From an uncultured Spartobacteria bacterium (GTDB taxonomy: Bacteria > Verrucomicrobiota > Verrucomicrobiia > Chthoniobacterales > UBA6821), in NCBI GenBank assembly GCA_903868795.1, contig CAIPWR010000108.1, positions 5,589-69,588 on the forward strand: DNA of 64,000 nucleotides, written 5' to 3'. The position numbers and the translations under genes were made by a program. The notes under the pieces were generated by a model. It had not been told where the DNA came from and ran no database searches. It worked only from the letters and a program-made list of their open reading frames with translations. This document shows positions 46,556 through 64,000 of the stretch, in pieces (positions within the stretch are counted from its first letter, which is position 1; every line of letters starts with the position of its first letter).

Positions 46556-46595
46556 ATCCACCATCTCCGCATCCAACCCAACCAAACTTATTCAT

Positions 46596-47603: not shown

Positions 47604-48472
47604 ATAATCGTTTCGCCATCGCGGGTGACGAGCCCGTGTCCTTTGCCCCGCCTGCGCCTCCTGAGATTTGCTGTGAGAGGGATTGGAGCGGTGCGCCGCC
47701 GATCCGTCTCCAACCCTCCGCGCACTACTCATCCGCGCAGACGGATCGAATCATCAACTACTGGCGACCGCGGATTGCGAATCTTGTGGAGAGCGCCATC
47801 GGAATGGTCGGTGATTTTCGTCAATATCAAGAAGGTGGAAAACTCGGTATCGACTGGCAGACCAATGGGAATCCTTATCCCTGTCTGCCGTTTCTGCGTG
47901 TGGTTGGCCCCCCCGAATCGGGAAGAGACATGAGGCACTTCACCGACGAGTCCTGCCACGTCCTGCTTCAGACCTCTACGAAAGAGGAGGCTCAAGAAGC
48001 CTATTGGTTTAAGGGAAGGATTCCCGACGCTCGTGATATCATGGAATGGATAGAACGATGGTCCGTCTGGCTTCCAAACGAGAGCAGTCAGTTTGAATTC
48101 TGGAGCGTTTTCTTGCCAAGCGGGACGTTCGAAAGGTTCTGCCATTATGTGCATTCTCTCGTCCACGACTACTATCTGGAAATCCTTGAGCGCCACACGC
48201 TTTGGGAAGAAAGGATGGAGTGCGAGGGCTGGCCTCCCCCGGCAGAGGATTCACTGCCGACCGCCAAGAATCTCCCCACGTCTATCCGCTACTGGCACCC
48301 AAGACTCCTCCTTGACGAGGAGGAATTCCGCCTCACGGTGGAGAATGCAGCCGAAGTCTTCGCCTTTACTATGGACATGCTGCAACGCTACAGGCATTCG
48401 CTCGACCAGGAGGCCAAAGATGCGCTGGAAATGGCCGCTTACGAGGCGTATCTGCTTGGAAATCCCAGATGA
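47600..48472 (+). CDS. hypothetical protein
   Basis: Start placed at MNNRFAIAG (47600). Its stop overlaps the M50 copy 2 start (ATGA at 48469). Confidence 0.5.
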   Translation: MNNRFAIAGDEPVSFAPPAPPEICCERDWSGAPPIRLQPSAHYSSAQTDRIINYWRPRIANLVESAIGMVGDFRQYQEGGKLGIDWQTNGNPYPCLPFLRVVGPPESGRDMRHFTDESCHVLLQTSTKEEAQEAYWFKGRIPDARDIMEWIERWSVWLPNESSQFEFWSVFLPSGTFERFCHYVHSLVHDYYLEILERHTLWEERMECEGWPPPAEDSLPTAKNLPTSIRYWHPRLLLDEEEFRLTVENAAEVFAFTMDMLQRYRHSLDQEAKDALEMAAYEAYLLGNPR

Positions 48473-49335
48473 ACACTGCGACCACTTCCTTTGCTTTTCG
48501 TAGGCGCCGGCGAACGCAATCCTACATGCACCCTCCTCTCAGATTTGGCGGGATTGCAGGGATTATCATGACTCTTTCCCGCGTCCCAGGACCTTTCTGG
48601 TCGGCGGCCAGCCTTCTTATGTCCCTCGCTTATTATGGTTGCCGGCTGGGGTGGGGCCTTGCCGCTGGATTTTTGGTTCTCCTTTCCGTTCACGAAACAG
48701 GGCATCTGTTGGCGGCTCGCCGTTATCGGCTTAGGACCTCCTGGCCGCTGTTTGTCCCGGGTCTGGGCGCGCTGATCGACATTCAGGAGGCGCCGGGAGA
48801 CCGTTGGCAGAACGCCGTCATCGGTGTTTCGGGACCGGTCTTCGGGACCATCGGAACATTGGTCTGCTTGTTCCTGGCTCATGTCTCGGGTTGCCGTCTC
48901 CTGTATGAAGCCGCTTTTGCGGGGGCCGTCATGAATACCTTTAATCTGATCCCTGTGGGGCCAATGGACGGTGGCCGTGTGGCCGAGCTTTTCTCGCGAT
49001 GGCTCTGGATTCCCGGATACCTGATGCTTGCGGTGATCGTCTGGTATTTACGGGCTCCGGCGGCGGTCCTTCTGCTCCTGCTTATGTTGCCGATCATCGT
49101 CACGCTCTTCCGCAGGAAGAAGTCCTTGAAAAGCGACTCTCCCGACTTGCGGGAACAGTCGCGGGTCTCGCTCGGCAAGCGCCTCGCCATGGGCTTCCTC
49201 TACATCGGGCTCGTCATCATTCTGGCCTCATCGATGTGCTGGATCTTTGTCAAAGACATCGCCCCGAGGCTCCATGCTGGGAAAAGCCTTACTCATTCAA
49301 TTCCCGGCAACAAAACCGCCGGAGTGGACCACTGA
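48469..49335 (+). CDS. M50 (site-2-protease-type) membrane metalloprotease (copy 2)
   Basis: HETGHLL and NTFNLIPVGPMDGGR. The C-terminal KRLAMGFLYIGLV..WIFVKDIAP parallels copy 1. Confidence 0.75.
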   Translation: MNTATTSFAFRRRRRTQSYMHPPLRFGGIAGIIMTLSRVPGPFWSAASLLMSLAYYGCRLGWGLAAGFLVLLSVHETGHLLAARRYRLRTSWPLFVPGLGALIDIQEAPGDRWQNAVIGVSGPVFGTIGTLVCLFLAHVSGCRLLYEAAFAGAVMNTFNLIPVGPMDGGRVAELFSRWLWIPGYLMLAVIVWYLRAPAAVLLLLLMLPIIVTLFRRKKSLKSDSPDLREQSRVSLGKRLAMGFLYIGLVIILASSMCWIFVKDIAPRLHAGKSLTHSIPGNKTAGVDH

Positions 49336-49512
49336 ACGGGAATGATGCCCTGGAACTCCCCCTGCATGGACTTGCCTTCTCGGCTTCCAGCCCTTTTCTG
49401 ACGGGCAAGCCCTCTTGGGGATATGCTCCCTGGATGCTTTTCTGGGAAGCGTCTCTGATTCAGACGACATTTCCTGACGGATTCCTGCGGCAGGCTTTTT
49501 GAACTCAAGCCC

Positions 49513-50154
49513 ATGAAGCCAAAGCTCACCATTCACGCATCACAGCGTATTTCCGAGCGATGCTCCTTACGCCCGGAGGTCCTGATTGGAATGATCGTCT
49601 GCGGGGCGACTGCAGTGATTGAGATGCTCTCCGCCGCGAAGTACGCACACCATCTCTTCTACTCACCAAAAGACATGGAGTGGTTTGTGGCGATTGTCAA
49701 AAACAGCCGCCAGATCCTCACTGTCATGCCGGCCGATTGGGAGCAAGACCGTGTCTTGATAACGAATGCCCAGAAGCGCAGTGTTCGCAAGAAGGCTCTG
49801 GATTGGGAAAGAAAAGGTGCTTCAAAGGCATCGGCCAGCGGTGAAGCGATGAATATAAAGCTCGGTGAGTCGATGGGTCTGCCCGGATGGAAGGTCATCA
49901 TCAGCTACACGCGGAACGGCCATCCTCATACCAAGAACCTTGGCCGCACCGCACCGGAGCATGGGACTCCGGATGACTGGAGTTGGCCCGGACAAGTTCA
50001 TGATTGGGTCAAAGAGCGCCTTGTGGAATCAGGGATTTCCATCCGCACCATCAAGGGGATCCGCTTGGAGAAAAAGTCTGATGGACCGATGGATGGTTGG
50101 TCGCTGCTTGAGAATCTTCCCATGACCCAAGAGGAAATCGCCGCCTGTGCTTGA
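49513..50154 (+). CDS. hypothetical protein
   Basis: 213-aa ATG ORF with no motif recognised. Confidence 0.45.
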   Translation: MKPKLTIHASQRISERCSLRPEVLIGMIVCGATAVIEMLSAAKYAHHLFYSPKDMEWFVAIVKNSRQILTVMPADWEQDRVLITNAQKRSVRKKALDWERKGASKASASGEAMNIKLGESMGLPGWKVIISYTRNGHPHTKNLGRTAPEHGTPDDWSWPGQVHDWVKERLVESGISIRTIKGIRLEKKSDGPMDGWSLLENLPMTQEEIAACA

Positions 50155-50477
50155 AGATATGGGTCCTGTGAGTGATCTGAATATAAGCAAAAAGCATCTT
50201 ACTTATATTCACCGATGTCTGTGGTGTGATCGGGAAAACAAAAAAAGAGTGTAATACAAAATAAACATTTTATCCCTGAGTCAAAAGCGGTTAATCATGA
50301 AAAGATGCTTGAATCTATGTCTTTTAAAAGAGAGAAGGCATTCAGATTCTAAAAACTCATTATGAAGAAAGAATGTATTACACGTGGAAAGATCTTGACG
50401 GAGGCGTATAAATGCGCTACAAAAAACCGCAATATCAATCGATAGTTTGCAACAGGAATCTAACAAAACATTCAGAT

Positions 50478-52010
50478 ATGAACACTAAAGACGAATCCAA
50501 TACCATCCAGTGCCCGAAGTGCTCCCATGACTTCGCCATGAACGAGGCTCTTCTTGCCCGTGTCACCCAGCAGGCCCAGGTCGAAATCGAGACACGCCTC
50601 CAGTTTGAGCGTGAGAAGATCTCCCGTGAGGCCGAGGTCCGTATCGCAGAGGCTGCCAAGACCGCCGCCGTGCAGCGCAAGGCATCCGAGGAGTCTGCCC
50701 GTCTACTCCGTGAGGAGGCAGTTGCCGCCGCCGTGCGCCTCGAGCAGGAGCGTCAAGCACAGCAGTCCACGCTCCAGGCTCAGCGCGAGCAGTTGAATCG
50801 CCAGTCCATCGAGGCCCTCACCAGGCAGTTGGGCGAGATGCAGGAGCAGAACCAGCGCCTTGCGGAGCGCGAACGCCTTGCGGAGATCAACGCCCGCCAG
50901 CAGGCCGAGGCGGCCGCCCAACAGCGCCTCGCCGCCGTCTCCGCGGAGATCGAACAGCGCCTCAAGCAGGAATCCGAGCTCCGCGTGCAGGAGCTGAACC
51001 TCCAGCTCAACACCCTTCGCGATCAGGTCGCCGCCGCAAACAACCGTGCCAACCAGATCAGCCAGCAGAACCAGGGAGCCGCACTGGAGGCCTCCGTCGA
51101 GGAACAGCTACGCACGGCATTTCCACATGATCTGGTCTCCGATGTGCCCGCCGGTGTGAATGGTGCCGATATCATGCTCGACGTGCACAACGACGCTGGG
51201 GTCCACTGCGGACGCATCTTGTTCGAGACAAAAAGAACGGCGCAGTGGTCCAATGACTGGACCCGCAAGCTCGGCGAGGACTTGCATCGTGCCAAGGCCG
51301 ACATCGGGGTGATCATCACCCAGACCATGCCTCGTGACATGAAAACCACAGGGATAAAGGACGGCGTCTGGGTTGCCGATTTCGCCTCTGCCATGACACT
51401 GATCCGCTCAATCCGTTGGGGCCTCCAGGAGTCCCATCTTCAGAAGCGCATCGCCGGACAGTCCGGTGAGGCCTCTGCCATGCTCTACGACTTCGTCACC
51501 TCCAACGACTTTCGCAACCGCGTCCAGACCATCCTCAAGACCTACGCCTCAATGCGTGAAGCACTTCTCAAGGAGCGCCGCTCCATGGACAAGATGTGGA
51601 AGATCCGCGAGGCCCAGCTTGACCTCCTTGCCGGCCACACCACGCACGTCATTACCAACATCGAGGTCAAGACCGGACACCAGCTTGAGGATGACGACAA
51701 CCTGGAGCTTGGAGAGGGGAACGATGACATCGATGTCGACTTCGAGGACGCCGCCCCGGTGACACGCGCCGCACTTCCTCCTTCGTTAGGCGAGGATCTG
51801 GAGCAGCTCGGCGAGATCTTCCTTAGCAAGCTCCGCAAACTAGGTAGTTCCGCTGGCAACAAAGCCATGCGCTTCGAGCTCATCTGGGATGCCGAGAAAT
51901 TCGAACGCGTTAAACAGTACCTCATCGAGGAGGAGCTGATCATCCCCGGACGTGGTCGGGGAGGGAGCGTCAGCCTTCCTGGATACGAAAAGAACCCCGC
52001 AAACGATTGA
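50478..52010 (+). CDS. DUF2130-like protein (Zn-ribbon, long coiled coil, PD-(D/E)XK-like core)
   Basis: CPKCSHDF at the N-terminus, a Q/E/A/R-rich coiled coil, then GADIMLDV...ILFETKRT (a D..ExK-like pattern). Confidence 0.65.
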   Translation: MNTKDESNTIQCPKCSHDFAMNEALLARVTQQAQVEIETRLQFEREKISREAEVRIAEAAKTAAVQRKASEESARLLREEAVAAAVRLEQERQAQQSTLQAQREQLNRQSIEALTRQLGEMQEQNQRLAERERLAEINARQQAEAAAQQRLAAVSAEIEQRLKQESELRVQELNLQLNTLRDQVAAANNRANQISQQNQGAALEASVEEQLRTAFPHDLVSDVPAGVNGADIMLDVHNDAGVHCGRILFETKRTAQWSNDWTRKLGEDLHRAKADIGVIITQTMPRDMKTTGIKDGVWVADFASAMTLIRSIRWGLQESHLQKRIAGQSGEASAMLYDFVTSNDFRNRVQTILKTYASMREALLKERRSMDKMWKIREAQLDLLAGHTTHVITNIEVKTGHQLEDDDNLELGEGNDDIDVDFEDAAPVTRAALPPSLGEDLEQLGEIFLSKLRKLGSSAGNKAMRFELIWDAEKFERVKQYLIEEELIIPGRGRGGSVSLPGYEKNPAND

Positions 52011-52049
52011 TCCCCAATTGTACCTCAATCCCTATATATCCTTCCCAAA

Positions 52050-52289
52050 ATGAAATCCCAACTCGCCCGCCTTCAGCAGACACTCTCTACCCAATCCGAA
52101 CTCATTCAGTCCATGGTTCAGGAAATGGACGTCATTCGCCAAGAGATGGGAATGTGCCGTGACGTGACCGAATTTATGCTCTCCGTGATCTTATCCGGGA
52201 GCGATGCCCGCAAGACGCTCATGGATCAGCCCGTACCTGCATCCCGATCAACCGGCTACTACGGGCTCAACCCCTCCAGGCTCCCATAA
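52050..52289 (+). CDS. small hypothetical protein
   Basis: 79-aa ATG ORF between the DUF2130 and Z1 genes. Confidence 0.3.
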   Translation: MKSQLARLQQTLSTQSELIQSMVQEMDVIRQEMGMCRDVTEFMLSVILSGSDARKTLMDQPVPASRSTGYYGLNPSRLP

Positions 52290-52362
52290 AAGCATCCGAA
52301 TAACTGCCGGATCCCCTGATTTTTATCGCCCAACTATAATCTTACAACATACCAACATTACT

Positions 52363-54570
52363 ATGCCCCTAGAACTCAACGGACATTTCTACACCAACTT
52401 CACGGCTGACCCTGAAGTCTACAATGACGAGCTGAAGGGCTGCATTGTCGAGACAATGGAGAAGATGGAGGACAAGCCGGCCGATGACAAACACCCCATC
52501 ATGCTGCTTGGCAAGATCCAGAGCGGTAAGACCCGTACCTTCGAAGGAGTGATGTCCTTGGCATTCGACAACGGATTTGATGTCTGCATTGTGCTGACCA
52601 AGGGGACCAAGGCCCTGACCAAGCAGACCTTCGAGCGCATCCGTCAGGACTTTGACCAGTTTATCCCTAGTAGAATGCAGGTCTATGATATCATGAGTAT
52701 GCCCACGCTTTCTCGGTTCGTCTTGGGGAGGAAGTTGGTTTTCATCGTTAAGAAAGAGGACGACAATCTCCTCCGCCTGCAGGAAGCCTTATTGCTGGAC
52801 TATCCGGAACTGGGAGAGAAACGCATCCTCATGATTGACGACGAGGCTGATTTTTCCAGCGTTGGATACAGCGGGAAAAAACGAGATGTTTCAGCGATGC
52901 GCGTTGTCGCGAAACAGATCAACGATATCCGCTCCCGTCTTCCCAACAGCCTATTGCTTCAGGTGACAGCCACGCCCTACACCCTGTACCTCCAGCCGAA
53001 GGACATCGTGATCCGTGGAAATGAGTTTTTGCCGGTTAAGCCTTCTCATACCGTTCTGGTGCCCGTGCATGGCGAATATATCGGCGGGGATGTCTACTTC
53101 CCTGAGGTAGATGCAGATGATGGCGAGATCAACCACGCCGACCACATACATGTCTCTGTTCCTGACAATGAGCTGCTTGTCCTGAAGAAAAGGGATCTTC
53201 GTCGCCTCAATCTTCAGCAGACACTGACAGCGCCTTCGATCGAGGTACTCAGGAAAGCCATTGCCACATTCATTATTGGAACAACCATTCGCCGCATTCA
53301 GACCGAGAATCTTGGGAGGGAAGCCGATTTCTACAGCTTCCTCGTTCACACCCAGACCGGCCGTAGTGCACATGACTGGCAGGAGGAGGTCGTATACAAC
53401 CTTCGCAAGGCAATGACCGAAGCGGCGGAGAACCAGGATCCCATACTTATGGAACTCTTCGAGGAATGCTATGCAGACCTCACCCAGTCGGTGACCGCCG
53501 CCGGCTTTCCGACGCCTCCATTGGATACAGTCATCCAACATGCCATCCAGGCATTGCAGGATGAATACCTGAGCATCAGTAAAGTCAACTCCGACGAGGA
53601 GGTGCTCGCCATGTTGGATCTCTCGGGACAACTCAGTCTCACATCACCCATGAACATCTTCATTGGGGGCCAGATTCTCGATCGCGGAATCACCATTTCC
53701 AACCTGATTGGTTTCTACTACGGCCGCGCTCCCAAGAAGTTCCAGCAGGACACAGTACTGCAGCACTCGCGTATGTATGGCTTCCGCTCCCTAGAGGATA
53801 TTGCCGTGACACGCTTCTATACCACGGTCGACATCCACTCAGCGATGAGGCGTATGCAGGAGAGCGATGCCGCCCTTCGCCGCAGGCTTCAGCCAGGTAA
53901 CGAGGACCCCTCCGTGATCTGCATCCAGATCGCAGCGGACAACTCCATCATTCCCTGTAACCCCAACAAGATCCTTCTCTCGCAGGTCACCACGCTGCGT
54001 CCCTACAAGCGCCTCCTGCCGGTGGGTTTCCAGAGTGGATACCGCACTCACATCGCAGGCACGGTTACTATGATTGATGGGTTGATTGCAGACCATCAGG
54101 TCGAGGGAAATCCCAACGCTCCCTTCCTCATGCCCCTCCAAGCAGTTGTCACCATCCTGCGCCGCATCTACGGCACCTTGGAATTCGAGGAAGCCGGCTA
54201 TCCGAGCAACCTCGACGAAATGATCGGAGCGCTCACTCACCTCAGTCAGAATTCCCCGAATGAGGCCGAACGCGGACTGGTCTGGGTACTTTGGCGTGGT
54301 GATCGTGAAATCAACCGATTCAAGGCCAACGGACGCTTCAGTAATGCCCCCGATACCTCCACTCAGGAGGGGCGTGCTGCCCGGGACGTTGCAATCGACA
54401 CCCCAGCGCTCATGCTCTTGCGTCAGAATGGACGCGCCGAGGATAACTGGCGTGGTACACCTTTCTACTGGCCGGTTCTTCTTACGCCTCTTCACACGAA
54501 GACGGCCCTCTTTGCCAACCAAGTCATCGAAGATGATCTGGCTGGTCACAATGATGATGATCAGGATTGA
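52363..54570 (+). CDS. Z1-domain protein (P-loop, methyltransferase-associated defence family)
   Basis: LLGKIQSGKTRTF Walker A and MIDDEADF, in a Z1-like layout. Start placed at the ATG at 52363. Confidence 0.65.
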   Translation: MPLELNGHFYTNFTADPEVYNDELKGCIVETMEKMEDKPADDKHPIMLLGKIQSGKTRTFEGVMSLAFDNGFDVCIVLTKGTKALTKQTFERIRQDFDQFIPSRMQVYDIMSMPTLSRFVLGRKLVFIVKKEDDNLLRLQEALLLDYPELGEKRILMIDDEADFSSVGYSGKKRDVSAMRVVAKQINDIRSRLPNSLLLQVTATPYTLYLQPKDIVIRGNEFLPVKPSHTVLVPVHGEYIGGDVYFPEVDADDGEINHADHIHVSVPDNELLVLKKRDLRRLNLQQTLTAPSIEVLRKAIATFIIGTTIRRIQTENLGREADFYSFLVHTQTGRSAHDWQEEVVYNLRKAMTEAAENQDPILMELFEECYADLTQSVTAAGFPTPPLDTVIQHAIQALQDEYLSISKVNSDEEVLAMLDLSGQLSLTSPMNIFIGGQILDRGITISNLIGFYYGRAPKKFQQDTVLQHSRMYGFRSLEDIAVTRFYTTVDIHSAMRRMQESDAALRRRLQPGNEDPSVICIQIAADNSIIPCNPNKILLSQVTTLRPYKRLLPVGFQSGYRTHIAGTVTMIDGLIADHQVEGNPNAPFLMPLQAVVTILRRIYGTLEFEEAGYPSNLDEMIGALTHLSQNSPNEAERGLVWVLWRGDREINRFKANGRFSNAPDTSTQEGRAARDVAIDTPALMLLRQNGRAEDNWRGTPFYWPVLLTPLHTKTALFANQVIEDDLAGHNDDDQD

Positions 54571-54640
54571 TCAACAGCGCCGCTTTTCAGATCGCCGAAC
54601 CTCATCGCCCTGTTAACAATTCTTAATTCCCTATAACCTT

Positions 54641-57600
54641 ATGTCTGAATTTTTTGAAAAACCGATTCTGAATTCACCCTATGAGCGTCCTGCAAAGCAC
54701 TGGGAACTCGATCAAGACGGGCAGCCGACTCAGAAAATCATCGATGAACGTCGTAAGGTCAAATTCATCACGCCGATTCCGAAGCCGAAAAAGCGGCGTC
54801 GCGGACAGCGTGAGTTGGATCTTCATGCTGGTACTGAAGAACAGAGGTACTCGGAGGATCTGATCAATGAGATTCGTCGTTTGGTGGACGAGTGGAGGGA
54901 GTATCCGCGTAACCTTTGGCAGGTGACTCCTGAAACAGCTCGTCTATTGGAGCATTGGAGGCACCATAATTTTGCCTCTGTGAGACCATTTTTTTGTCAG
55001 ATCGAGGCCGTCGAGACACTGATCTGGCTCACAGAGGTTGCGCCGAATAGTGAACGCGGAAAGAAACTTATAAAAAGTTTAGAGGCATCCAATGAAGAGT
55101 CCAATCCGGGGCTCTATCGACTGGCACTCAAGCTTGCTACTGGCGCCGGGAAGACAACGGTCATGTCGATGGTGATCGCCTGGCAGACCGTGAACGCAGT
55201 CCGCCGTTCTACCAGCAAGCAGTTCACCAAAGGTTTTCTCATCGTCGCTCCCGGTCTGACCATTAAGGATCGCTTGCGCGTCCTGCAGCCGAACGATCCA
55301 GATAATTACTATTCTACTCGTGAGATCGTCCCTCAGGACATGCTGGGCGACATCCAGAAGGCCCGAATTGTTATCACGAACTATCATTCCTTTAAACTTC
55401 GTGAGCGCTTGGAACTTTCCGCAGCTGGACGAGCACTCCTCACCGGACGCACAGGTGAAGCTCTTCAGACCAAGGAGTCCGAAGGACAGATGCTTCAGCG
55501 CGTCATGCCAGAGCTCATGGGAATGAAGCATGTCTTGGTGTTGAATGACGAGGCCCACCATTGCTACCAAGAGAAGCCACCGGAACCTGACGATGAGGAG
55601 CTTAAAGGAGAGGACAAAAAAGAGGCTGCAGAATGTAACGAGGAGGCTCGCCTCTGGATATCGGGCCTCAAAATTGTTCAGGAATATCTCGGGATCAACA
55701 GGGTGATTGACCTCTCCGCTACCCCTTTCTTCTTGAAGGGATCCGGTTATGCGGAAGGAACTCTCTTCCCATGGACGATGTGTGATTTCTCACTCATGGA
55801 TGCCATTGAGTGCGGTATCGTGAAGCTTCCTCGTGTTCCTGTTGCGGAAAATATCACAGGCCCGCAGCAGCTCCCAATTTACCGGGATCTTTGGCCCCAT
55901 ATCGGAAAAGAACTGCCCACCGGCAGCAGTCGCGGCAATGCGGAGCTCGATCCACAGCAGCTACCTCCACTCCTGACTACGGCACTGGAGTCTCTGTACG
56001 GTCATTACAAGAAGACCTTTGACCTGTGGGAGGATAAGGGAATCGAAATTCCTCCCTGCTTTATCATCGTCTGCCAGAACGTCGATATCTCGCGTCTGGT
56101 ATATGAGTACATCTCCGGCTACTACCGCACGGATGATAGGACTGGTACATCGACACTTGTAAACGGCCACTTTGAGCTCTTTCAAAATTTCGACAAGCAG
56201 ACCTGCAATCCTCTTGCCAAGCCTAATACTCTCCTGATCGATTCCCGGCAGCTGGAGTCGGGAGAGGCACTGGATGACAAGTTCAGGAAGGTCGCGGCGG
56301 ACGAGATAGAGCGCTTCCGCCGTGATAAAATTGAACGTAGCGGCGATCCTCGTGCTGGGGAGAACATCTCTGAGCAGGAACTCCTTCGTGAAGTTATGAA
56401 TACAGTGGGTAAGCCTGGTAAGCTCGGTGCCGGGATCCGCTGCGTGGTGTCTGTATCCATGCTGACAGAGGGATGGGACGCCAACAACGTCACCCATATC
56501 CTGGGAGTCAGGGCCTTCGGAACCAAGCTCCTCTGTGAGCAGGTCATCGGTCGCGCACTTCGCCGACAGTCCTATGAACTGAACGAGGAGAACCTCTTTA
56601 ATGTCGAGTATGCTGATATCTACGGAATCCCTTTTGACTTCACGGGCAAGCCCGTCGTGGCAGAACCTCAGCCACCTCGGCAGACCGTGTTGGTTCAGGC
56701 GGTTCGCCCAGATCGCGATCCACTGGCGATCAGTTTTCCTCGCGTAGACGGATACAAAATCGATCTTCCCGAGGAGAACCTCACGGCGAGTTTCGATGAG
56801 AATAGCTACATGGATCTTAATTCCACAATCGTGGGCCCAACCGAGGTCCAGACATCCGGCATCATCGGGCAGACGGAGGAAATGACCCTTGAGCACCTTC
56901 GTGAGGTGCGCCGTTCAACAGTCATCTACCGGTTGACTCAGCATCTATTGATGAACAAGTTCCGAGACTCAGGGGGAGAGCCGAAGCTTCACCTCTTTGG
57001 ACAGCTCTCTAGGATCGTTAGGGAATGGCTGGAAGGCGGCTACCTACGCTGCAGCGGTGATACTCAGGAGGGACTACTACTTCATCTTTATTTGGCCGAC
57101 CGTGCCTGCAATAAAATCGAGCGCGCCATTACCAGCAGTCTCCTTGGAACCCGACCAGTGAAGGCAATCCTGAGCCCCTATAATCCAGTGGGATCCACTT
57201 CCAATCTGAAGCCATTCCCTACATCGAAGCCGACTTGGGACACGGTTGGGAGAGGAAACCCCAAGAACCATGTCAACCTCGTCGTGCTCGACAGCGATTG
57301 GGAAGGTGAATTCTGCCGTGTGGTTGAGAATCACCCTAAGGTCATCGCCTATACCAAGAACCATAATCTTGGTTTCGAGGTGCCCTACCTGTTGGGTTCT
57401 GATGTCCATCGTTATCGTCCGGATTTCATCGTTCTGGTAGATGATGGTCGCGGCTCCAAGGATCCACTCCATCTCATTGTCGAGATCAAGGGATACCGTG
57501 GGGAAGATGCCGTTGAGAAAGCCGGCACTATGAAGACCTACTGGATACCAGGAGTGAACTACCTTGGAACCCATGGTCGCTGGGCATTTGCGGAATTTCG

Positions 57601-57715
57601 CAATGTCTTTGAGATCAACCGAGATCTCAAAGAGGAGATTCAGGCCCACGTTGACAGCATCATCGCTGATGCCGTTGCTGGAGTGATCGTACCACCTGAT
57701 ACTCCAGCGGAATGA
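54641..57715 (+). CDS. res: Type III restriction enzyme Res subunit (SF2 helicase plus PD-ExK nuclease)
   Basis: ATGAGKTT, LNDEAHHC, SATPF and QVIGRALRR helicase motifs. The C-terminus has RPDFIV...IVEIKG. Confidence 0.85.
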   Translation: MSEFFEKPILNSPYERPAKHWELDQDGQPTQKIIDERRKVKFITPIPKPKKRRRGQRELDLHAGTEEQRYSEDLINEIRRLVDEWREYPRNLWQVTPETARLLEHWRHHNFASVRPFFCQIEAVETLIWLTEVAPNSERGKKLIKSLEASNEESNPGLYRLALKLATGAGKTTVMSMVIAWQTVNAVRRSTSKQFTKGFLIVAPGLTIKDRLRVLQPNDPDNYYSTREIVPQDMLGDIQKARIVITNYHSFKLRERLELSAAGRALLTGRTGEALQTKESEGQMLQRVMPELMGMKHVLVLNDEAHHCYQEKPPEPDDEELKGEDKKEAAECNEEARLWISGLKIVQEYLGINRVIDLSATPFFLKGSGYAEGTLFPWTMCDFSLMDAIECGIVKLPRVPVAENITGPQQLPIYRDLWPHIGKELPTGSSRGNAELDPQQLPPLLTTALESLYGHYKKTFDLWEDKGIEIPPCFIIVCQNVDISRLVYEYISGYYRTDDRTGTSTLVNGHFELFQNFDKQTCNPLAKPNTLLIDSRQLESGEALDDKFRKVAADEIERFRRDKIERSGDPRAGENISEQELLREVMNTVGKPGKLGAGIRCVVSVSMLTEGWDANNVTHILGVRAFGTKLLCEQVIGRALRRQSYELNEENLFNVEYADIYGIPFDFTGKPVVAEPQPPRQTVLVQAVRPDRDPLAISFPRVDGYKIDLPEENLTASFDENSYMDLNSTIVGPTEVQTSGIIGQTEEMTLEHLREVRRSTVIYRLTQHLLMNKFRDSGGEPKLHLFGQLSRIVREWLEGGYLRCSGDTQEGLLLHLYLADRACNKIERAITSSLLGTRPVKAILSPYNPVGSTSNLKPFPTSKPTWDTVGRGNPKNHVNLVVLDSDWEGEFCRVVENHPKVIAYTKNHNLGFEVPYLLGSDVHRYRPDFIVLVDDGRGSKDPLHLIVEIKGYRGEDAVEKAGTMKTYWIPGVNYLGTHGRWAFAEFRNVFEINRDLKEEIQAHVDSIIADAVAGVIVPPDTPAE

Positions 57716-58728
57716 GCGTAGGCAGGCTACCATCGCTCTTCCTGTTATCTACCGATCCGGTCGGAGGGATCTGGTTTCCTCCGCGTGCCAAGGATCAAGC
57801 TAATAAACTGCGCAAATGGCACTGGGATGGGAAGCGGATACACTGGTCTCCGGATAAGCCCGAAGGAGCTGATCTTAAGGAGGAGTTCATGGGACGACTT
57901 CTTGATACAGTTGAGAAGTACCGAAAGGCAGCCCCTCAGTCTTTCCTGAAACTCAGCGGGACTTCGAAGACCGGTGTTACCTGGTCCCTGCCTGCCGTGG
58001 GTGCCTGCCCACAGGTCGATGAAACATGCGGCACCTGCTATGCGCTCGACGGATTCTACCGGACCAATATCGCGGCACAAGTTGGGCGTGTCATGAGGCT
58101 GGAATATCTAAGGGATCTTATCGCAAAGAAGCGTCTTGGAGAGTGGATCGATTGGGCCTCCGATACAATAGGACGGCTTCGTCCGATCGAGGCTGTTCCA
58201 AAGAAGATCTCACTCGATGCGCCACTGAGTGAAGCCATACCAGCCAACCACAAAAGAGTGTCCTACATGAGATGGCATGACTCGGGAGATCTCTTTCATG
58301 CGGAGTATGCCAAGGCGGTGCTCGAGGTCTGTAGGAGGACACCCGAGGTATTGCATTGGATGCCCACCAGGATGGGATCTCTCTTGGCAGGCTTACTGGC
58401 TAAGGGAGAGAGGCTTCCACCCAATCTCGCGGTCCAGGTGAGTTGTCATCGGGGAGGCATTCTTGAGAAGGCCCAGCACGCCGCGATCAGTGAGATCCGG
58501 TCCCACCAGCCCACGGCTAGGGTCGGAATGACTTATGCCCATACTGGGAGTAAAAGCAGGATGGTTACTCCCGCAGAGGTTCGATCTTCCTATGGAGAGA
58601 CGGCGTCTCTCTGTCCCGCCACAGTTGCTAAGAAGAGTGAAGATCGTGTCTGCACAGGGTGCAGACGTTGCTGGGCTCAGGCTCAGCCCGACTCTCCCAT
58701 CATTTATGCTATTCACCTAGCAAACTAG
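57712..58728 (+). CDS. three-Cys-motif protein (phage Gp37/Gp68- or GP88-like; uncertain)
   Basis: TWSLPAVGACPQVDETCGTCYALDGFY gives the pattern C-x7-C-x2-C-Y-A. ATGA overlap with res. Confidence 0.45.
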   Translation: MSVGRLPSLFLLSTDPVGGIWFPPRAKDQANKLRKWHWDGKRIHWSPDKPEGADLKEEFMGRLLDTVEKYRKAAPQSFLKLSGTSKTGVTWSLPAVGACPQVDETCGTCYALDGFYRTNIAAQVGRVMRLEYLRDLIAKKRLGEWIDWASDTIGRLRPIEAVPKKISLDAPLSEAIPANHKRVSYMRWHDSGDLFHAEYAKAVLEVCRRTPEVLHWMPTRMGSLLAGLLAKGERLPPNLAVQVSCHRGGILEKAQHAAISEIRSHQPTARVGMTYAHTGSKSRMVTPAEVRSSYGETASLCPATVAKKSEDRVCTGCRRCWAQAQPDSPIIYAIHLAN

Positions 58729-58739
58729 GTACCAACAAC

Positions 58740-59810
58740 ATGCCATCGGAAAAAATAACCCCCACTAGCAAGAGCAAACGAAAACTCGGAATTGTCTCTC
58801 TCTACGCAGGTGCAGGTGGCCTGGATATTGCGGCCTGCCGTACAGGGATGGTCGAGGCAATTGTCTCTACGGATGCGAATGCGACATTCCTATCTACCAT
58901 AGAGAAGAATCTTCCCGTTCATTTTCCAGAGGTGCGTCATGCCTCCATCGTGGAGGACGGCACGACGATCAAAGGATCAGTTCTGAAAAAACTCCTTGGT
59001 TACACCCCAGATATTGTTATGGGAGGTCCTCCATGCGATGATTTTACATCTTTAGGTAAAAAAAGAGGGCTTGCTGGTGAAAAAGGAAATCTTATATATC
59101 AATATTTGAGAGTTGTTAATGAAATAAAACCCAAAGTTTTTATTTTCGAAAATGTTCCTAATCTTGCGAAGCAGTTTAGAAGAGCCTTTGAGACTTTTCT
59201 ATCGGATGCAGAAGGTATGGGTTACCATATTAAATGGGCTCTTTTAAAAGCCTGTGACTATGGTGCTCCAACATCAAGAACAAGAATTTTTGTAGTTGGT
59301 TGGAAAAGCCAAATTAATAATAGTCGATACCAGTTTCCAAATGTAACTCATAGAGAACTTAATTTAGAGCAAGCTGAGTTGTTAAATAGCGATGAAACTA
59401 TGCCGATGGTTTACATTAGAGACATCCTGCAGTCATTGCCTGATGTTGGAACAAATGAAGCTGAAAAGTTTTTAAATCATGTTGGAAGGCCTCATCGGCC
59501 AGAAACAATAGAGCATTTAAAAACGGTGCCAATGGGTAAAAGTGTAAAGAAGTCTTATAGATACAGGTCTCCTTGGGATGGTTTAATTCAGTCTCTTACT
59601 GCAGGAGTTGATTATGCCACTAAGTCATATATTCATCCGATATATCATCGTGAAATGTCAGTGCGAGAGTACGCTAGAATACATGGATTCGCTGATTCAT
59701 GGGACTTTTCAGGAACTCACCACAATGGAATTAAACAAGTAGCAAATGCAGTTCCAATTCCACTTGGTAGTGCAGTTATCAAATCTGTTGCACAAATGCT
59801 TTCTAAATAA
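58740..59810 (+). CDS. DNA (cytosine-5)-methyltransferase
   Basis: Motif I LYAGAGGLD, motif IV GGPPCDDFT, motif VI FIFENVPNL, and motif X QVANAVPIPLG. Confidence 0.9.
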   Translation: MPSEKITPTSKSKRKLGIVSLYAGAGGLDIAACRTGMVEAIVSTDANATFLSTIEKNLPVHFPEVRHASIVEDGTTIKGSVLKKLLGYTPDIVMGGPPCDDFTSLGKKRGLAGEKGNLIYQYLRVVNEIKPKVFIFENVPNLAKQFRRAFETFLSDAEGMGYHIKWALLKACDYGAPTSRTRIFVVGWKSQINNSRYQFPNVTHRELNLEQAELLNSDETMPMVYIRDILQSLPDVGTNEAEKFLNHVGRPHRPETIEHLKTVPMGKSVKKSYRYRSPWDGLIQSLTAGVDYATKSYIHPIYHREMSVREYARIHGFADSWDFSGTHHNGIKQVANAVPIPLGSAVIKSVAQMLSK

Positions 59811-59813
59811 AGT

Positions 59814-62591
59814 ATGAAAAAGAAAAACGATAAAAAGAAGATTGAAGCACTAACTCATAAAGAGGCTAAGAGAGCTAATATTCCTACAGTTGAACATCAA
59901 TCGGTAATATCTGACGAGACCTCTATTATAAAAAAACGCACATACAAAAGAAATGCGGAATTAGATCCTCAGCTTTTATGGCATGGAAAAGATGAACAGA
60001 ACTGGAGTGATCTAGTTGTTGATGCACCACCAATCTTTATACAAGAAAAAATACATCCCAAGGCGCTAATTGACGACCTTCAAAGAGTTGCTAGAGCGAC
60101 AAAACATGAAATTGGGGAGATAACTGCAGATCTCTTTGAAGATTTTGATGGAATACCTCACGGGGTTGATAAAACGGAGTTTTATTCTCATGACCAAAAC
60201 TGGTCTAACAGGATGATATTAGGAGACTCTCTCCAAGTTATGGCTAGTTTAGCCGAACGCGAGGGTTTGCAAGGCAAAGTTCAATGCATCTATTTTGATC
60301 CCCCTTACGGGATAAAATTTAATAGTAATTTTCAGTGGTCTACAACAACACGCGACGTCAAAGATAATAAAGCTAATCATATAACGCGAGAGCCAGAAAT
60401 GGTTAGAGCCTTCCGAGATACTTGGCGTGATGGAATACATAGCTATCTTACTTATCTAAGAGATAGAATGACCGTAGCTCGCGACCTTCTTTCTAATACG
60501 GGGTCTATTTTTGTTCAGATAGGTGATGAGAACGTGCACTTAGTTCGATCATTGCTAGATGAAGTCTTTGGTGAACAAAACTTTGTGAGCCAGATTGCAT
60601 TCAAAAAGAATCTACCTCTAGGTTCGAGAACTCTACCCGGAATATATGATATTATTCTTTGGTATGCAAAAGACATAGACCAAGCAAAAATTAAGAAGCT
60701 ATATGAGCCAAAACCAATTGGATTGGGTACGGGATATACTTGGATCGATGATGGTAATGGTAGAAGAAGAAAAATGTCTTCGGAAGAAAGGCGGGATTTA
60801 ACACTATTACCAGAAGACTGTCGGCCATTCTTTACCAGCGATTTAGCGTCATCTGGTTATACGCCTACATGCTTCTTTGATATCGATTTTAAGGGAAAGA
60901 TATTTAGAGCAACCAAGCGAAGCTGGAAAACTAATAAGACTGGTATGCAACGATTAATCAAAAGTGATAGAATATTAGCGCCTGCAACTCTGCCAACGTT
61001 TGTTAAATTCTTTGATGATTTTCCCGCTAAAGAGATTCACAACTTGTGGGATGATACACATGGTGCAACTGATCTAATATATGTAGTTCAGACTTCTAAC
61101 AAAGTAGTCCAGCGGTGTATACTTATGGCTTCTGATCCAGGCGACTTAATTTTGGATCCTACATGTGGTTCCGGAACTACCGCGTATGTTTCAGAGCAAT
61201 GGGGTCGTCGTTGGATTACAATTGATACTTCGCGGGTGTCACTTGCATTAGCGCGCAGTAGAATAATGGGTGCACGCTATCCATTCTATCTTCTTGCCGA
61301 TTCACCCGAAGGACAAATCAAGAAAGGAGAATTGACTGATACAGCTCCCAGTACCCAGCTCACGCATGGAAATATTCGTCACGGGTTTGTTTATGATAAA
61401 GTTCGTCATGTTACGCTTAGATCCGTTGCGACAAATACAGAGATAGATTTTATATGGGAAAGCTTCGAGGAAAAGCTAGCTCATCTAATGCAAGAAATTA
61501 ATAACATTCTTGGTACATCGTGGCAGGAATGGGATGTTCCAAGAGATGCAATTATTTCATGGCCTGATAATGCCAAAAAGCTTCATGCCGATTGGTGGAA
61601 AATCAGAATTAGTCGCCAGGAAGAAATTGATGCCTCAATTCTAACAAATGCTGAGTTCGAGGATCTTGTTGATAAACCATTCGTAGACGAGAAGCGAGAT
61701 CGCGTAGCTGGACCTTTTTCTGTTGAGAGCCTTAGCCCACATCGGGTTCTGGGAGTAGATCATGATGGGAGCCTGATTGATCCGCTCAAGATTGCCGAAC
61801 AGGCACCTGGCTATGGGGAGCTTCGGACCTTTGAGCAGATGATCTTGGATAATTTACTCAAGGCCGGAGTCCAACAGCGTGATAAGAAAGACCGTATCAC
61901 TTTCGAGTCGATCGAGGCATGGCCAGGGGGACGCTACCTTTGCGCCGTTGGCACCTTTAAGGAAGGCGATGCAGAAAAACGCGCTGGTATCTTGGTGGGG
62001 CCGGAATTTGGAACTGTTTCTAGGCCTGATCTTGTTGAGGCAGCAAGGGAGGCGGGTGATGCGAAGTTCGATGTGCTGATCACCTGTGCCTTTAACTACG
62101 ATGCAATGGCCACGGAGTTCAATAATCTAGGTAAGATCAAGGTGCTCAAGGCCAGGATGAATGCCGATCTTCATATGGCAGGAGAACTCAAGAACACAGG
62201 GGCAGGGAATCTCTTCGTGATCTTTGGGGAGCCGGATATGGATGTTATTGATGAGAAAGACGGCCTCATAAGAATCCATGTGAAGGGAGTCGATGTATTT
62301 GATCCAACTTCCGGAGAGGTTCGTAGTGATGATACCGACGGCATCGCTTGCTGGTTCATTGACACGGACTACAACGGAGAGAGCTTTTTCGTGCGCCATG
62401 CCTATTTCCTGGGACAGAAGGATCCGTACAAGGCGCTCAAGACGACGCTCAAAGCAGAAATCGACAAGGAGGCATGGGAGACCCTGCATAGCGACATATC
62501 CAGGCCCTTTGAACGGCCCAAGAGCGGCCGTATTGCCGTGAAGGTGATCAACCACCTCGGCGATGAAGTGCTCAAGGTGCTCAAGGTCTAA
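59814..62591 (+). CDS. mod: Type III-like Mod DNA methyltransferase (beta-class N6A/N4C)
   Basis: IYFDPPYGIKF (motif IV) precedes DPTCGSGTTA (motif I). 925 aa. Confidence 0.8.
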   Translation: MKKKNDKKKIEALTHKEAKRANIPTVEHQSVISDETSIIKKRTYKRNAELDPQLLWHGKDEQNWSDLVVDAPPIFIQEKIHPKALIDDLQRVARATKHEIGEITADLFEDFDGIPHGVDKTEFYSHDQNWSNRMILGDSLQVMASLAEREGLQGKVQCIYFDPPYGIKFNSNFQWSTTTRDVKDNKANHITREPEMVRAFRDTWRDGIHSYLTYLRDRMTVARDLLSNTGSIFVQIGDENVHLVRSLLDEVFGEQNFVSQIAFKKNLPLGSRTLPGIYDIILWYAKDIDQAKIKKLYEPKPIGLGTGYTWIDDGNGRRRKMSSEERRDLTLLPEDCRPFFTSDLASSGYTPTCFFDIDFKGKIFRATKRSWKTNKTGMQRLIKSDRILAPATLPTFVKFFDDFPAKEIHNLWDDTHGATDLIYVVQTSNKVVQRCILMASDPGDLILDPTCGSGTTAYVSEQWGRRWITIDTSRVSLALARSRIMGARYPFYLLADSPEGQIKKGELTDTAPSTQLTHGNIRHGFVYDKVRHVTLRSVATNTEIDFIWESFEEKLAHLMQEINNILGTSWQEWDVPRDAIISWPDNAKKLHADWWKIRISRQEEIDASILTNAEFEDLVDKPFVDEKRDRVAGPFSVESLSPHRVLGVDHDGSLIDPLKIAEQAPGYGELRTFEQMILDNLLKAGVQQRDKKDRITFESIEAWPGGRYLCAVGTFKEGDAEKRAGILVGPEFGTVSRPDLVEAAREAGDAKFDVLITCAFNYDAMATEFNNLGKIKVLKARMNADLHMAGELKNTGAGNLFVIFGEPDMDVIDEKDGLIRIHVKGVDVFDPTSGEVRSDDTDGIACWFIDTDYNGESFFVRHAYFLGQKDPYKALKTTLKAEIDKEAWETLHSDISRPFERPKSGRIAVKVINHLGDEVLKVLKV

Positions 62592-62594
62592 AGA

Positions 62595-63860
62595 ATGAGT
62601 GTTACGGCGACTGTTCTCTTCGGCAAACCACAGCATGAGATTCAGAGTCTCATAGAGGAGAGCATCTCTAAGTCTCTCACTACGAGTATCGTAACAGGGT
62701 TCGCCACACCTGGAGGGCTAAAAGCAATTGAGGAGCCAATTAAGGCGGTGCCCGGGAAGATCTCAACAATAATTGTTGGTGCTGCTACATACCCAGGCTT
62801 TGTAGCGCTTGATGACCTTAATGCAGCCGGGGTTCCTCTAAACCGTCTTTTTATCCATCTGGGTCATACTCGAGAGTCGGGAACCTACAAAAATCCTGTA
62901 GTGCGTTTTCACCCGATGCTGCACAGTAAGATTTTCTACATGGAGTTTCCGGACGCCAAGGCTTGCGCCTTTATTGGCTCCCATAATATGACGTCATTTG
63001 CTCTCAAGGGACTGAATGGGGAGGCAGGTGTGATGCTGGAGGGGCCATCAAAATCACCAGAATTTCAAAAAGTCAGGGATCATATCGAAGAGGCAAAGAC
63101 TCAGGCGGTTAACTATTCTCCTGGTATGAAGGATGCCTACGCCTGGTGGGCACGCGAGTACCTGGATGGAATGAAAGCGGAGATGAAAATACCGATTGAG
63201 TCCACAATGGGGAGGACGATTCTGATCTTTGCGAAGGTCGAGGGCAAAGAGCGCCCTCAAGATGGGCATAACGTCTATTTCGAGATTCCGGCAGGTATTG
63301 ATCAAATCGAGTCGATGAAGACGGAGATGCATTTGTTTCTCTTTGCAACACTACCGGCTGACCCCTGGACGGCGTTGAATACTGTTCCCGAAGAGTCCTA
63401 CACTTGCCAGATCCAAGGTGTGGAAAATGAACAAGGTAACAGAGAGGTAGCAGCTGACTGGAGAATTACAGGAACAACTCCCCCTGTGTTGCATGATGTG
63501 CCGACAAAACGATATCGCCCCTTAACGCGAAAAGGAAAACAACAGGTCAGAGCAAAGGTTATGAAGAGTGGTGTCACTTCATACGAATATTTCTTTGAGC
63601 AGAAGAAGGACCGATGGGAACCGTTGTACTCAGATGCTCCTGCAATCTATGGCTATAGGAACTCCCTCAAAGGTAATCCCAATCAGAAGGTCTCACCAGA
63701 TCCTGATGATCCTAAAGCCGAAAATGGATGGAAGCTGGTCACGGGACTTGTATCCCATGACAGATCAAATAAAGAAAAGGATATGAAAGCTCTGGAGCTT
63801 GTACTGCCAGACTCTGGATCATTCATCCTCGTCTCCCTTAGGAAAAGCAAGAAGGCCTAG
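62595..63860 (+). CDS. PLD/HKD-superfamily nuclease-like protein
   Basis: A single HKD-like motif, HSKIFYMEF...FIGSHNMT. Confidence 0.65.
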   Translation: MSVTATVLFGKPQHEIQSLIEESISKSLTTSIVTGFATPGGLKAIEEPIKAVPGKISTIIVGAATYPGFVALDDLNAAGVPLNRLFIHLGHTRESGTYKNPVVRFHPMLHSKIFYMEFPDAKACAFIGSHNMTSFALKGLNGEAGVMLEGPSKSPEFQKVRDHIEEAKTQAVNYSPGMKDAYAWWAREYLDGMKAEMKIPIESTMGRTILIFAKVEGKERPQDGHNVYFEIPAGIDQIESMKTEMHLFLFATLPADPWTALNTVPEESYTCQIQGVENEQGNREVAADWRITGTTPPVLHDVPTKRYRPLTRKGKQQVRAKVMKSGVTSYEYFFEQKKDRWEPLYSDAPAIYGYRNSLKGNPNQKVSPDPDDPKAENGWKLVTGLVSHDRSNKEKDMKALELVLPDSGSFILVSLRKSKKA

Positions 63861-63887
63861 TACCTAAGAAAAGAACACTCTAAATCA

Positions 63888-64000
63888 TGAAATTCCTGAT
63901 TGCAGATACTTTTACATCAAGTCTGGCCCGTTTGATGGCTGACGAACAGAAGGCCGTCAAGACGACGGTCTTTGATCTGCAGACAAACATCGAGCATCCA
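63888..64000 (+). CDS. hypothetical protein, N-terminal 37 codons only
   Basis: An ATG ORF (MKFLIADTFTSSLARLMADEQKAVKTTVFDLQ) runs off the window. From memory, it resembles N-termini of helicase-type defence proteins, but I could not verify this. Confidence 0.4.

Follow-up and report, generated by a model that had tools for sequence, protein, structure and literature searches.

The window analysed here, a stretch of 64,000 nucleotides (nt) from a contig of an uncultured Spartobacteria bacterium, carries on its plus strand, from 50.4 kb to the window end, a tightly packed array of long open reading frames (ORFs) that runs past this end. Our subject is the restriction-type gene cluster within this array, in which a gene for a restriction endonuclease of the BPTD_3080 family (res) is followed by genes for a GP88/DUF5131-like Cys-rich protein, a C5-cytosine DNA methyltransferase (dcm), a second DNA methyltransferase (mod), a PLD/HKD-family nuclease and a UvrD-type helicase, and is preceded by genes for a DUF2130 protein and a helicase-Z1 protein. 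The region had been read in a preliminary description as a composite defence island. Scans with Pfam, PADLOC and NCBIfam confirmed all the domain calls for its seven genes, every one of which lies on the plus strand; together with the coordinates, they bear out the gene content, the tight co-directional packing with gaps of 3-70 nt and the AT-rich spacer reported there. The features are the following.

50155-50477, no strand: AT-rich intergenic spacer, 323 nt, 34.4% GC against 51% for the whole window
50478-52010, plus strand: DUF2130 protein, 510 amino acids (aa) (Pfam PF09903, 161 bits)
52050-52289, plus strand: small ORF, 79 aa, just 5' of the Z1 gene (gene call on the identical scaffold L248)
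52363-54570, plus strand: helicase-Z1 protein, 735 aa (Pfam PF10593, 87 bits)
54641-57715, plus strand: Res, BPTD_3080-family restriction endonuclease (NCBIfam NF046055, 1279.7 bits)
57712-58728, plus strand: GP88/DUF5131-like Cys-rich protein, 338 aa (Pfam GP88, 76.7 bits)
58740-59810, plus strand: C5-cytosine DNA methyltransferase (dcm), 356 aa (PF00145, 189.5 bits)
59814-62591, plus strand: Mod, beta-class N6/N4 DNA methyltransferase, 925 aa (N6_N4_Mtase, 100 bits)
62595-63860, plus strand: PLD/HKD-family nuclease, 421 aa (HSK...E...GSHN motif at H110)
63888-64000, plus strand: UvrD-type helicase, 5' end only, its ORF being cut by the window end (690 aa on the identical scaffold L248)

The Z1 and res genes are separated by 70 nt, res and the GP88-like gene overlap by 4 nt, and the gaps that follow measure 11 nt (GP88-dcm), 3 nt (dcm-mod), 3 nt (mod-PLD) and 27 nt (PLD-helicase). 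A metagenome scaffold in ENA (L248) is 100% identical to positions 42363-64000 of the window, and independent gene calls on it place the starts of DUF2130 at 50478, of Z1 at 52363 and of dcm at 58740. Thus dcm probably starts with the ATG at 58740 and not with the GTG upstream of it (58659).

A res-mod-helicase core

The Res protein scores well above the equivalog cut-off of the BPTD_3080 model (800 bits), with its residues 5-999 lying on profile positions 1-969 of 970. It carries the superfamily 2 (SF2) helicase motifs GAGKT at 168, DEAH at 303, SAT at 359 and QxxGR at 634. Pfam gives a ResIII match of 41 bits and a C-terminal RE_endonuc match of 22.6 bits, just below the cut-off, inside which lies a PD-(D/E)XK-like arrangement, D928...E948-I-K950. 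The protein falls far below the cut-offs of the classical Type III and Type I endonuclease models and reaches at most 26 bits against REase_III in PADLOC v2, and a phmmer search of the PDB returned no relative, not even the Res subunit of EcoP15I.

The Mod protein matches the PADLOC family MTase_III (PDLC03632) at 1250 bits. Its Pfam N6_N4_Mtase domain spans residues 156-474. DPPY at 162 lies ahead of the CGSG motif that binds S-adenosylmethionine (SAM), as in beta-class enzymes, and among solved structures Mod comes closest to the Mod subunits of Type III systems (6k0w, 58 bits; EcoP15I, 4zcf, 50 bits). The C-terminal part of about 440 aa (residues ~487-925) matched no Pfam family. Conservation is highest over the last 300 aa, which are 90-96% identical to the related locus L083, described below, against 26-78% elsewhere.

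Relatives of res number more than 580 in species-representative genomes and come from many phyla; the best 80 (62-67% identity) were kept for comparison. Among these, mod lies 3' of res on the same strand in 68/68 loci with both genes. Rhodococcus plasmids annotated by PGAP show the same succession, a 'BPTD_3080 family restriction endonuclease' and then a 'site-specific DNA-methyltransferase', and plasmids of Pseudomonas avellanae and Gemmobacter carry res, mod and then a third gene, labelled '3'-5' exonuclease' by PGAP, which is a UvrD-like helicase. Of the 80 genome loci, 34 have a homologue of the UvrD-type helicase (50-61% identity) downstream of mod, as do L088, L089 and L254-L258. Judged from these sequence comparisons, the core of the system is usually three genes, res-mod-helicase, and res before mod is the family norm. 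The gene order had been called unusual in the preliminary description; this view does not survive the comparison, with res before mod in every such locus and on the Rhodococcus, Pseudomonas and Gemmobacter plasmids, and with genes nested between the two in 33/68.

The closest relative of the core, L083, has the order res-GP88-dcm-mod-UvrD, with identities of 89% for res, 87% for GP88, 62% for dcm and 67% for mod. It is without Z1, DUF2130 and PLD, and its 5' flank holds Schlafen-like, DUF1016 and DUF5658 genes in place of Z1 and DUF2130. Located 3' of UvrD in the closest relatives (L083, 15061-19017; L088, ~15008-15787) are genes for a 287-aa protein of no assigned family, two ATPases resembling BrxD (PADLOC BrxD scores of 148 and 47 bits) and a DEAD/Cas3-like helicase, which may form a further attached system. 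Much more distant is a locus of Roseimicrobium gellanilyticum (L252, 11716-18217), whose mod and res are 35% and 34% identical to those of the window. There the order is the opposite, mod then res, and an FRG-domain gene is nested between them; therefore, gene order and nesting habit vary across the wider superfamily.

Guest genes and flanking modules

The res-mod junction is closed in about half of the related loci, with the two genes adjacent in 35/68 (gap of at most 265 nt), and holds 0.5-3.8 kb of cargo in 33/68. Pfam scans of the 41 larger ORFs in these gaps gave the following families.

Bro-N: 8 ORFs
HATPase_c_4 (with DUF4062 or Schlafen AlbA_2): 7 ORFs
DUF1016/YhcG: 3 ORFs
GmrSD_N: 3 ORFs
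Fic: 3 ORFs
PDDEXK_3: 2 ORFs
NYN: 2 ORFs
Cytidine-deaminase-like: 2 ORFs
AAA+subtilase, ORF6N, ABC-type ATPase, reverse transcriptase, 23S-rRNA-IVP protein: 1 ORF each

The mod-UvrD junction behaves similarly: the genes are adjacent in 7 loci (57-61 nt) and separated by 0.7-4.9 kb of cargo in 25, so that most helicase-bearing loci hold guests between mod and helicase. This cargo includes AAA_21/AAA_15 ATPases, AAA+subtilase, RhuM, DarT with macro, AbiEii, KAP NTPase, DprA-like and DUF4041+T5orf172 genes. Many of these guest families, namely Fic, Bro-N/ORF6N, DUF1016, GmrSD, RhuM, AbiEii and Schlafen-like ATPases, are also commonly nested in Type I hsd operons. PrrC, nested in the EcoprrI Type I restriction-modification (R-M) operon, is a precedent for such an arrangement (PMC12707154). 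The window is one instance of this general pattern, with the GP88-like gene and dcm in the first slot and PLD in the second. As side observations at the res-mod junction, the deaminase-like inserts match dCMP_cyt_deam_1, Inv-AAD and MafB19-deam, and no family is obvious for two ORFs of 380-391 aa on the minus strand (L019, L040); both kinds are candidates for unrecognised defence genes.

The PLD protein has a single motif, H110-S-K...E117...G128-S-H-N131, which is invariant across 30 homologues. Foldseek searches with its modelled N-terminal domain (residues 1-195) returned SauUSI at 5e-8, NucT at 1e-5 and Nuc at 7e-5, followed by NgoAVII R; the RE_NgoFVII match is sub-threshold (19.4 bits, cut-off 23.8), and the beta-rich C-terminal half of ~220 aa gave no match. 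About 455 homologues were found. Besides the window, a Tardiphaga homologue (56%) stands in the order res-mod-HNH-PLD-UvrD, and a Microvirga homologue (54%) in the order GmrSD-mod-PLD-UvrD, where the PLD stop overlaps the helicase start. A homologue in Sinorhizobium glycinis (51%; L259, 9001-10272) follows hsdR by 55 nt and closes a Type I hsdM-hsdS-hsdR operon; the PLD family is thus linked to more than one type of restriction operon. PLD lies directly upstream of the same UvrD family in 3/4 contexts. Compared with L083, the PLD gene of the window is a clean 1.29-kb insertion replacing 7 nt.

The helicase-Z1 protein in its 735-aa form is identical to a database protein (P0072), and a PADLOC 'Helicase_II' match of 176 bits extends across residues 74-762. 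Its clade consists of proteins of ~725 aa and yielded more than 4,000 matches at E <=1e-10. Three relatives, 68%, 58% and 49% identical, each stand alone at the 5' edge of a cluster: respectively an SNF2-DUF4391-Mod-Res-dcm cluster, a Mod-FRG-Res cluster in Roseimicrobium, by an integrase, and a Bacillus BREX locus. No AIPR or MutL-like genes lie beside Z1 in the window or in these three contexts, and the score against the MzaC equivalog is 52.8 bits, with a cut-off of 1500. One or two small ORFs accompany each Z1 copy, and ORFs of 126-162 aa precede other members of the clade; the 79-aa ORF at 52050..52289 matched no family. The preliminary description had noted that the usual AIPR or ATPase partners of Z1 are missing here; a loss of partners is not supported, as the clade stands alone in three other contexts and is not the MzaC equivalog. 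We take helicase-Z1 to be a module standing on its own, probably a restriction-type enzyme made of a single protein. As a separate observation, the Z1 clade is found just 5' of a different methylation-based system in 4/4 contexts (L249-L253 and the window), which looks recurrent. A shared chromosomal site for the window and the related Z1 loci L249-L251 was considered and dropped, the YbjN genes being only ~40% identical.

No counterpart of DUF2130 was found in the 80 related res loci or in L083. Compared across loci, it is an unrelated neighbour and not part of the core system. Upstream of the island, 37463-50154 holds a further co-directional run, with an AAA ATPase (37463-38644), Peptidase_M50 paralogues (39182-40078 and 48469-49335), a YbjN-family gene (41936-42682) and six ORFs without a Pfam match; essentially no PADLOC match was obtained among the ten ORFs scanned. 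Because the genes of this run are mostly unannotatable, the variable or defence region may begin well 5' of 50.4 kb.

Scans of the array for sigma-70-like promoters and terminators performed no better than on shuffled sequence. No tRNA genes were found in the window and no Rfam families in 49-64 kb, and the inserts are not bordered by meaningful repeats, direct or inverted. With the whole island as query, megablast gave no match in E. coli genomes and only two short res matches in plasmids, and a Klebsiella res homologue gave no match in E. coli genomes.

The GP88-like protein and its C5-methylase partner

The Pfam GP88 match (PF17338) of the Cys-rich protein covers residues 178-322 and lies far above the gathering threshold of 24.4 bits, and a DUF5131 match of 16.7 bits is sub-threshold. 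Its close homologues, 71 among 5.8 billion clustered proteins, all carry PF17338. Two cysteine clusters are invariant in an alignment of 25 homologues: an N-terminal one, C99-x6-C106-x2-C109, followed by YAL, and a C-terminal cluster of four, C301...C314-x2-C317-x2-C320. RWHDSGD and HWLPTR are invariant as well. The three-Cys motif aligns with the N-terminus of DUF5131 and precedes a beta/alpha core; its spacing is Cx6Cx2C, not the canonical CX3CX2C of radical SAM proteins. An AlphaFold2 model of the protein has a predicted local distance difference test score (pLDDT) of 89.5. Compared with predicted viral proteins, this model matches GP88 and Gp37/Gp68 at E down to 1e-8, and viral radical SAM proteins weakly (probability 0.5-0.9). 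Within the radical SAM superfamily, DUF5131 is classified as a subgroup; it falls in the same megacluster as spore photoproduct lyase and clusters adjacent to it in RadicalSAM.org (PMC9477430).

The subfamily that is linked to dcm has an extra N-terminal domain of ~95 aa, which the phage homologues are without. These phage homologues number hundreds at 25-30% identity and have an adjacent C5-methylase in ~1/158 loci; homologues at <=43% identity are without a methylase and lie in integrative or phage-like regions. The phage neighbourhoods of GP88 consist mostly of ORFs of 70-150 aa. TcmP, Gp37/Gp68 and PF17338 appear in the literature only as incidental mentions.

Near the window protein, the picture is different: a C5-methylase adjoins GP88 in 6/6 readable contexts at >=52% identity, which are arranged as follows.

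Window: res-GP88-dcm-mod-PLD-UvrD
87% GP88 homologue: res-GP88-dcm-mod-UvrD
73% GP88 homologue: res-GP88-dcm-mod-UvrD
58% GP88 homologue: res-mod-GP88-dcm-UvrD
55% GP88 homologue: mod-UvrD, 3.6 kb, then GP88-dcm
52% GP88 homologue: overlapping vsr-GP88 operon faced by a divergent dcm, next to an unrelated pair of SNF2 and N6-methylase genes

GP88-dcm thus lies in or beside the BPTD_3080 family in 5/6 contexts, and its position varies.

The methylase of the window has the motifs LYAGAGG (I), GGPPCDDF (IV, with PCD and not PCQ), ENV (VI), PTSRTR (VIII) and QVANAVP (X). It deviates from its family in having PCD for PCQ, PTSRTR for QxRxR and ANAVP for GNAVP, and the catalytic Cys is kept. Three variants are common to all GP88-linked dcm proteins: motif IV reads GGPPCD[DN]F, motif VIII P-T-x-R-x-R and motif X Q-V-A-N-[AS]-V-P. 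In the set of the 150 nearest representatives at 50% identity, drawn from 1.84 billion proteins, PCQ occurs in 123, PCE in 8 and PCD in 3, and all three PCD proteins belong to the GP88-linked clade. By these motifs, dcm is a member of the C5-methylase family with a clade-specific signature.

The GC content is ~40% in dcm and the first 1.7 kb of mod (58740-61513), against 50-55% in res, GP88 and the 3' part of mod, and the same dip is seen in the 77%-identical L083 (9026-11836), at 42-44% against 49-53%. Low GC as a sign of recent transfer was rejected, since the dip shared with L083 makes it an old, conserved property of the lineage.

One protein may bring the two partners together in a single chain. 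P0326, of 681 aa, consists of a PCE-type C5-methylase (Pfam match at residues 3-326) and a C-terminal tail of 350 aa, whose motifs C-x5-C-x3-CYAHDG, RFSHIGE, VIYTR and CPVT...C..C..CF are collinear with those of the GP88-like protein. The tail has no Pfam match, its score with the GP88 hidden Markov model is not significant, and hhalign against GP88 gives E 0.038 with a probability of 1.4%. P0326 may therefore be a natural methylase-GP88 fusion, as a lead only, the homology being without statistical support.

Separable modules, rival readings and known systems

Taken together, the best explanation of the array as a whole, and one that we consider reasonably probable, is a stack of defence modules that share one direction and can be separated, as opposed to a single novel and integrated system. 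The composite of parts from several system types, as proposed in the preliminary description, is borne out, and the GP88-like, PLD and DUF2130 proteins indeed belong to no PADLOC v2 system beyond weak matches. The idea of a single unit mixing two systems is not supported, as the modules occur apart and L083 has the core block without Z1, DUF2130 and PLD. The refuting condition named in the preliminary description, that databases resolve the region into catalogued systems of the same gene order, holds by half: res and mod are found in the catalogues (NF046055, MTase_III) and in normal order, while the GP88-dcm pair and PLD are uncatalogued.

The core would be a three-gene, Type III-like, ATP-dependent R-M system. 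By analogy with Type III enzymes, Mod would mark host DNA at a short asymmetric site, and since Mod has DPPY the mark is probably N6-methyladenine; Res and Mod would use ATP to find and cut unmarked DNA, with the UvrD-type helicase as an accessory. The C-terminal part of Mod may dock Res or the helicase. Two permissive junctions, between res and mod and between mod and helicase, would take self-contained guest genes, which are probably swapped by recombination through the conserved flanking genes. The guests may share their expression with the restriction system and possibly, like PrrC, serve as its backup, and the PLD protein is probably an extra DNA-degrading effector.

For GP88-dcm, the reading that we prefer, with low confidence, is a two-step modification of cytosine. 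The methylase would make 5-methylcytosine (m5C) or hold a flipped cytosine, and an Fe-S, radical SAM-related partner would then act on the base, giving a second self-mark alongside that of Mod. This reading is based on the radical SAM classification and on the analogy between the methyl group of m5C and that of thymine, as in spore photoproduct lyase, as well as on the altered catalytic-loop motif of the methylase and the precedent of hypermodification (PMC12783734). More broadly, GP88-dcm might represent a new two-enzyme DNA chemistry, either a radical SAM-type conversion of m5C, or of a cytosine that the methylase keeps flipped, to an as yet unseen self-mark base or an m5C-gated radical restriction effector; we regard this as a tentative possibility.

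The strongest rival, doubtful in itself and rated almost as likely as two-step modification, is that GP88-dcm is an R-M pair of Type II logic, in which dcm protects and the Cys-cluster effector damages or cuts DNA without m5C. In the slot, the pair would then be a further selfish defence cassette among the guests. The pair always travels as a unit while its positions differ, the remaining guests in the slots are defence or toxin modules complete in themselves, and the extra N-terminal domain of the GP88-like protein could read DNA. Moreover, dcm is divergent from the overlapping vsr-GP88 operon in one context, and a layout of this kind is classical for m5C Type II systems that include a gene for Vsr repair. 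However, the GP88-like protein matched no nuclease family in Pfam, PADLOC, NCBIfam, PDB sequences or Foldseek, we know of no restriction nuclease with a GP88-like fold, and the homologues at 40-43% and in phages (25-30%), being without an adjacent methylase, are hard to square with a DNA-damaging effector. The identity of 87% between the GP88 proteins of two loci whose dcm proteins are only 62% identical is neutral in this respect. A further alternative is repair. Vsr repairs T:G mismatches from m5C deamination, and the Cys-cluster protein could have a Vsr-like role on side-products of the C5-methylase, using radical chemistry like that of spore photoproduct lyase. The position of DUF5131 by that enzyme (PMC9477430), the strict adjacency to dcm and the translational coupling to vsr in one locus are consistent with such a role; nevertheless, Vsr is already present in that locus, so that the function would have to differ, the phage homologues are unlinked to C5-methylases, and sequence-level similarity to spore photoproduct lyase was not found. 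We consider repair quite unlikely.

The juxtaposition might also be meaningless, with junctions that simply tolerate insertions and with GP88-dcm and PLD as hitch-hikers, to which we give some limited credence, more than to repair. The cargo varies greatly and is not related from one locus to the next, the gene boundaries at the PLD insertion are clean, and the same PLD family is also found after a Type I operon. What argues against it is the presence of GP88-dcm in or beside this family in 5/6 contexts despite its shifting position, and of PLD directly 5' of the same UvrD family in 3/4. This suggests an affinity of GP88-dcm and PLD for the family that exceeds chance, although shared recombination tracts could also yield it. 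The least probable of the readings, in our view, is that everything from Z1/DUF2130 through the helicase is a single multi-component machine, like DISARM or BREX. The genes share one strand with gaps of 3-70 nt or overlaps over 52363-63888, relatives of Z1 lie repeatedly just 5' of methylation-based systems, and the set of parts, with a helicase, N6 and C5 methylases and a PLD protein, resembles that of DISARM, PLD weakly matching DrmC and dcm matching DrmMII. Yet every module is found without the others, DrmA and DrmB are missing, generic Type II methylases give dcm a higher score than DrmMII does, and 0/80 related res loci carry homologues of Z1, DUF2130, PLD, GP88 or dcm.

Several points weigh against the readings that we prefer. 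As regards the stack of modules, the tight spacing between Z1 and the core could still reflect co-transcription and functional coupling; the slot statistics cover only the best-scoring 80 loci out of more than 580, and the ORF calls behind them were mechanical; the UvrD gene is not universal, being absent in 12 loci with >=4.9 kb downstream, including the Rhodococcus plasmids; and we found no paper on the BPTD_3080 family in the literature. As regards two-step modification, the radical SAM link of the GP88-like protein is indirect, resting on the Pfam/SFLD classification and weak fold matches. Its profile has no match among PDB sequences, and the best Foldseek hits in the PDB are generic TIM barrels at E 0.035, with RlmN at a probability of 0.54. 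The vsr-GP88 operon facing a divergent dcm looks like the classical methylase/Vsr/restriction (M/V/R) arrangement, which favours restriction, and a second modification step, a restriction partner and repair are not separable in silico. Our literature search returned nothing on the function of GP88/DUF5131, and DUF5131 only in one classification table.

If confirmed, these results would define a neglected Type III-like family with a consistent architecture, present in more than 580 loci of species-representative genomes, in many phyla and on plasmids. Annotation tools that expect a compact mod-res pair could miss or split BPTD_3080 loci. Since the slots are filled with recognised defence and toxin families, the slot ORFs of no assigned family are good candidates for new defence genes, and nesting of the PrrC type, known from Type I systems, would extend to another class of restriction systems. 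The GP88-dcm pair links the GP88/DUF5131 family, common in phages, to a distinctive clade of C5-methylases; a new chemistry of the pair, if true, would offer a first way into the function of the very large GP88 / Gp37-Gp68 family of phages.

Among known systems, MZA and dcm-AIPR-Z1 clusters share with the window a Z1 domain with a helicase-like N-terminal region. MZA was rejected on the MzaC score given above and on the absence of a MutL-like ATPase or AIPR among the window genes. DISARM was also rejected, with no DrmA/DrmB (DUF1998) match among the seven proteins and a DrmC match of 17 bits (E 8e-4). The PLD protein shares with the PLD restriction nucleases (NgoFVII/NgoAVII R, the N-terminal domain of SauUSI, Nuc/NucT) a single HxK...GSxN motif and the PLD fold.

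The GP88-like protein resembles phage GP88 (PF17338) and DUF5131/Gp37-Gp68 (PF07505) proteins in its Pfam match and fold match; the phage GP88 members differ in having neither the N-terminal domain of ~95 aa nor an obligatory C5-methylase neighbour. For the pair, phages reportedly offer a parallel in which a C5-methylase-fold enzyme (MT) is paired with a second enzyme, a TET/5mYOX protein, acting on the C5 substituent. Homologues of C5-methylases also feed hypermodification in the CmoA-CmoX-CmoY pathway, where the active-site Arg of CmoX mirrors the engineered M.MpeI N374K (PMC12783734). A carboxymethyl transfer of the CmoX type by the dcm of the window is judged unlikely, because the Asn of motif X is kept. 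This Asn, in QVANAVP, we take to be the counterpart of M.MpeI N374, which we place in motif X. The hypermodification pathways differ from the pair of the window in being phage-encoded and in using dioxygenases or ligases.

The core itself is like the classical Type III systems (EcoP15I, EcoP1I) in its beta-class Mod, related to Type III Mods, and in a Res that combines SF2 motifs with a PD-(D/E)XK-like motif. It is unlike them in the order res-mod instead of mod-res, in a helicase as the usual third gene, and in a Mod of 925 aa with a conserved extension of ~440 aa. Assignment to the classical Type III systems was rejected, as both the Res family and the gene order fail; against the Type III endonuclease model NF012027, Res scores 18.9 bits, with a cut-off of 564. 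The nesting of defence and toxin genes between restriction subunit genes is shared with Type I R-M systems, as for PrrC in EcoprrI (PMC12707154), but here a Type III-like operon acts as host and offers two slots, and one guest is a methylase-containing pair and not a lone toxin. Finally, the NF046055 system of the Pseudomonas avellanae plasmid p1NCPPB4222 has the same res-mod-helicase order, and all three of its proteins are 54-62% identical to those of the window; that copy is compact, whereas the window carries a two-gene insert between res and mod and PLD before the helicase.

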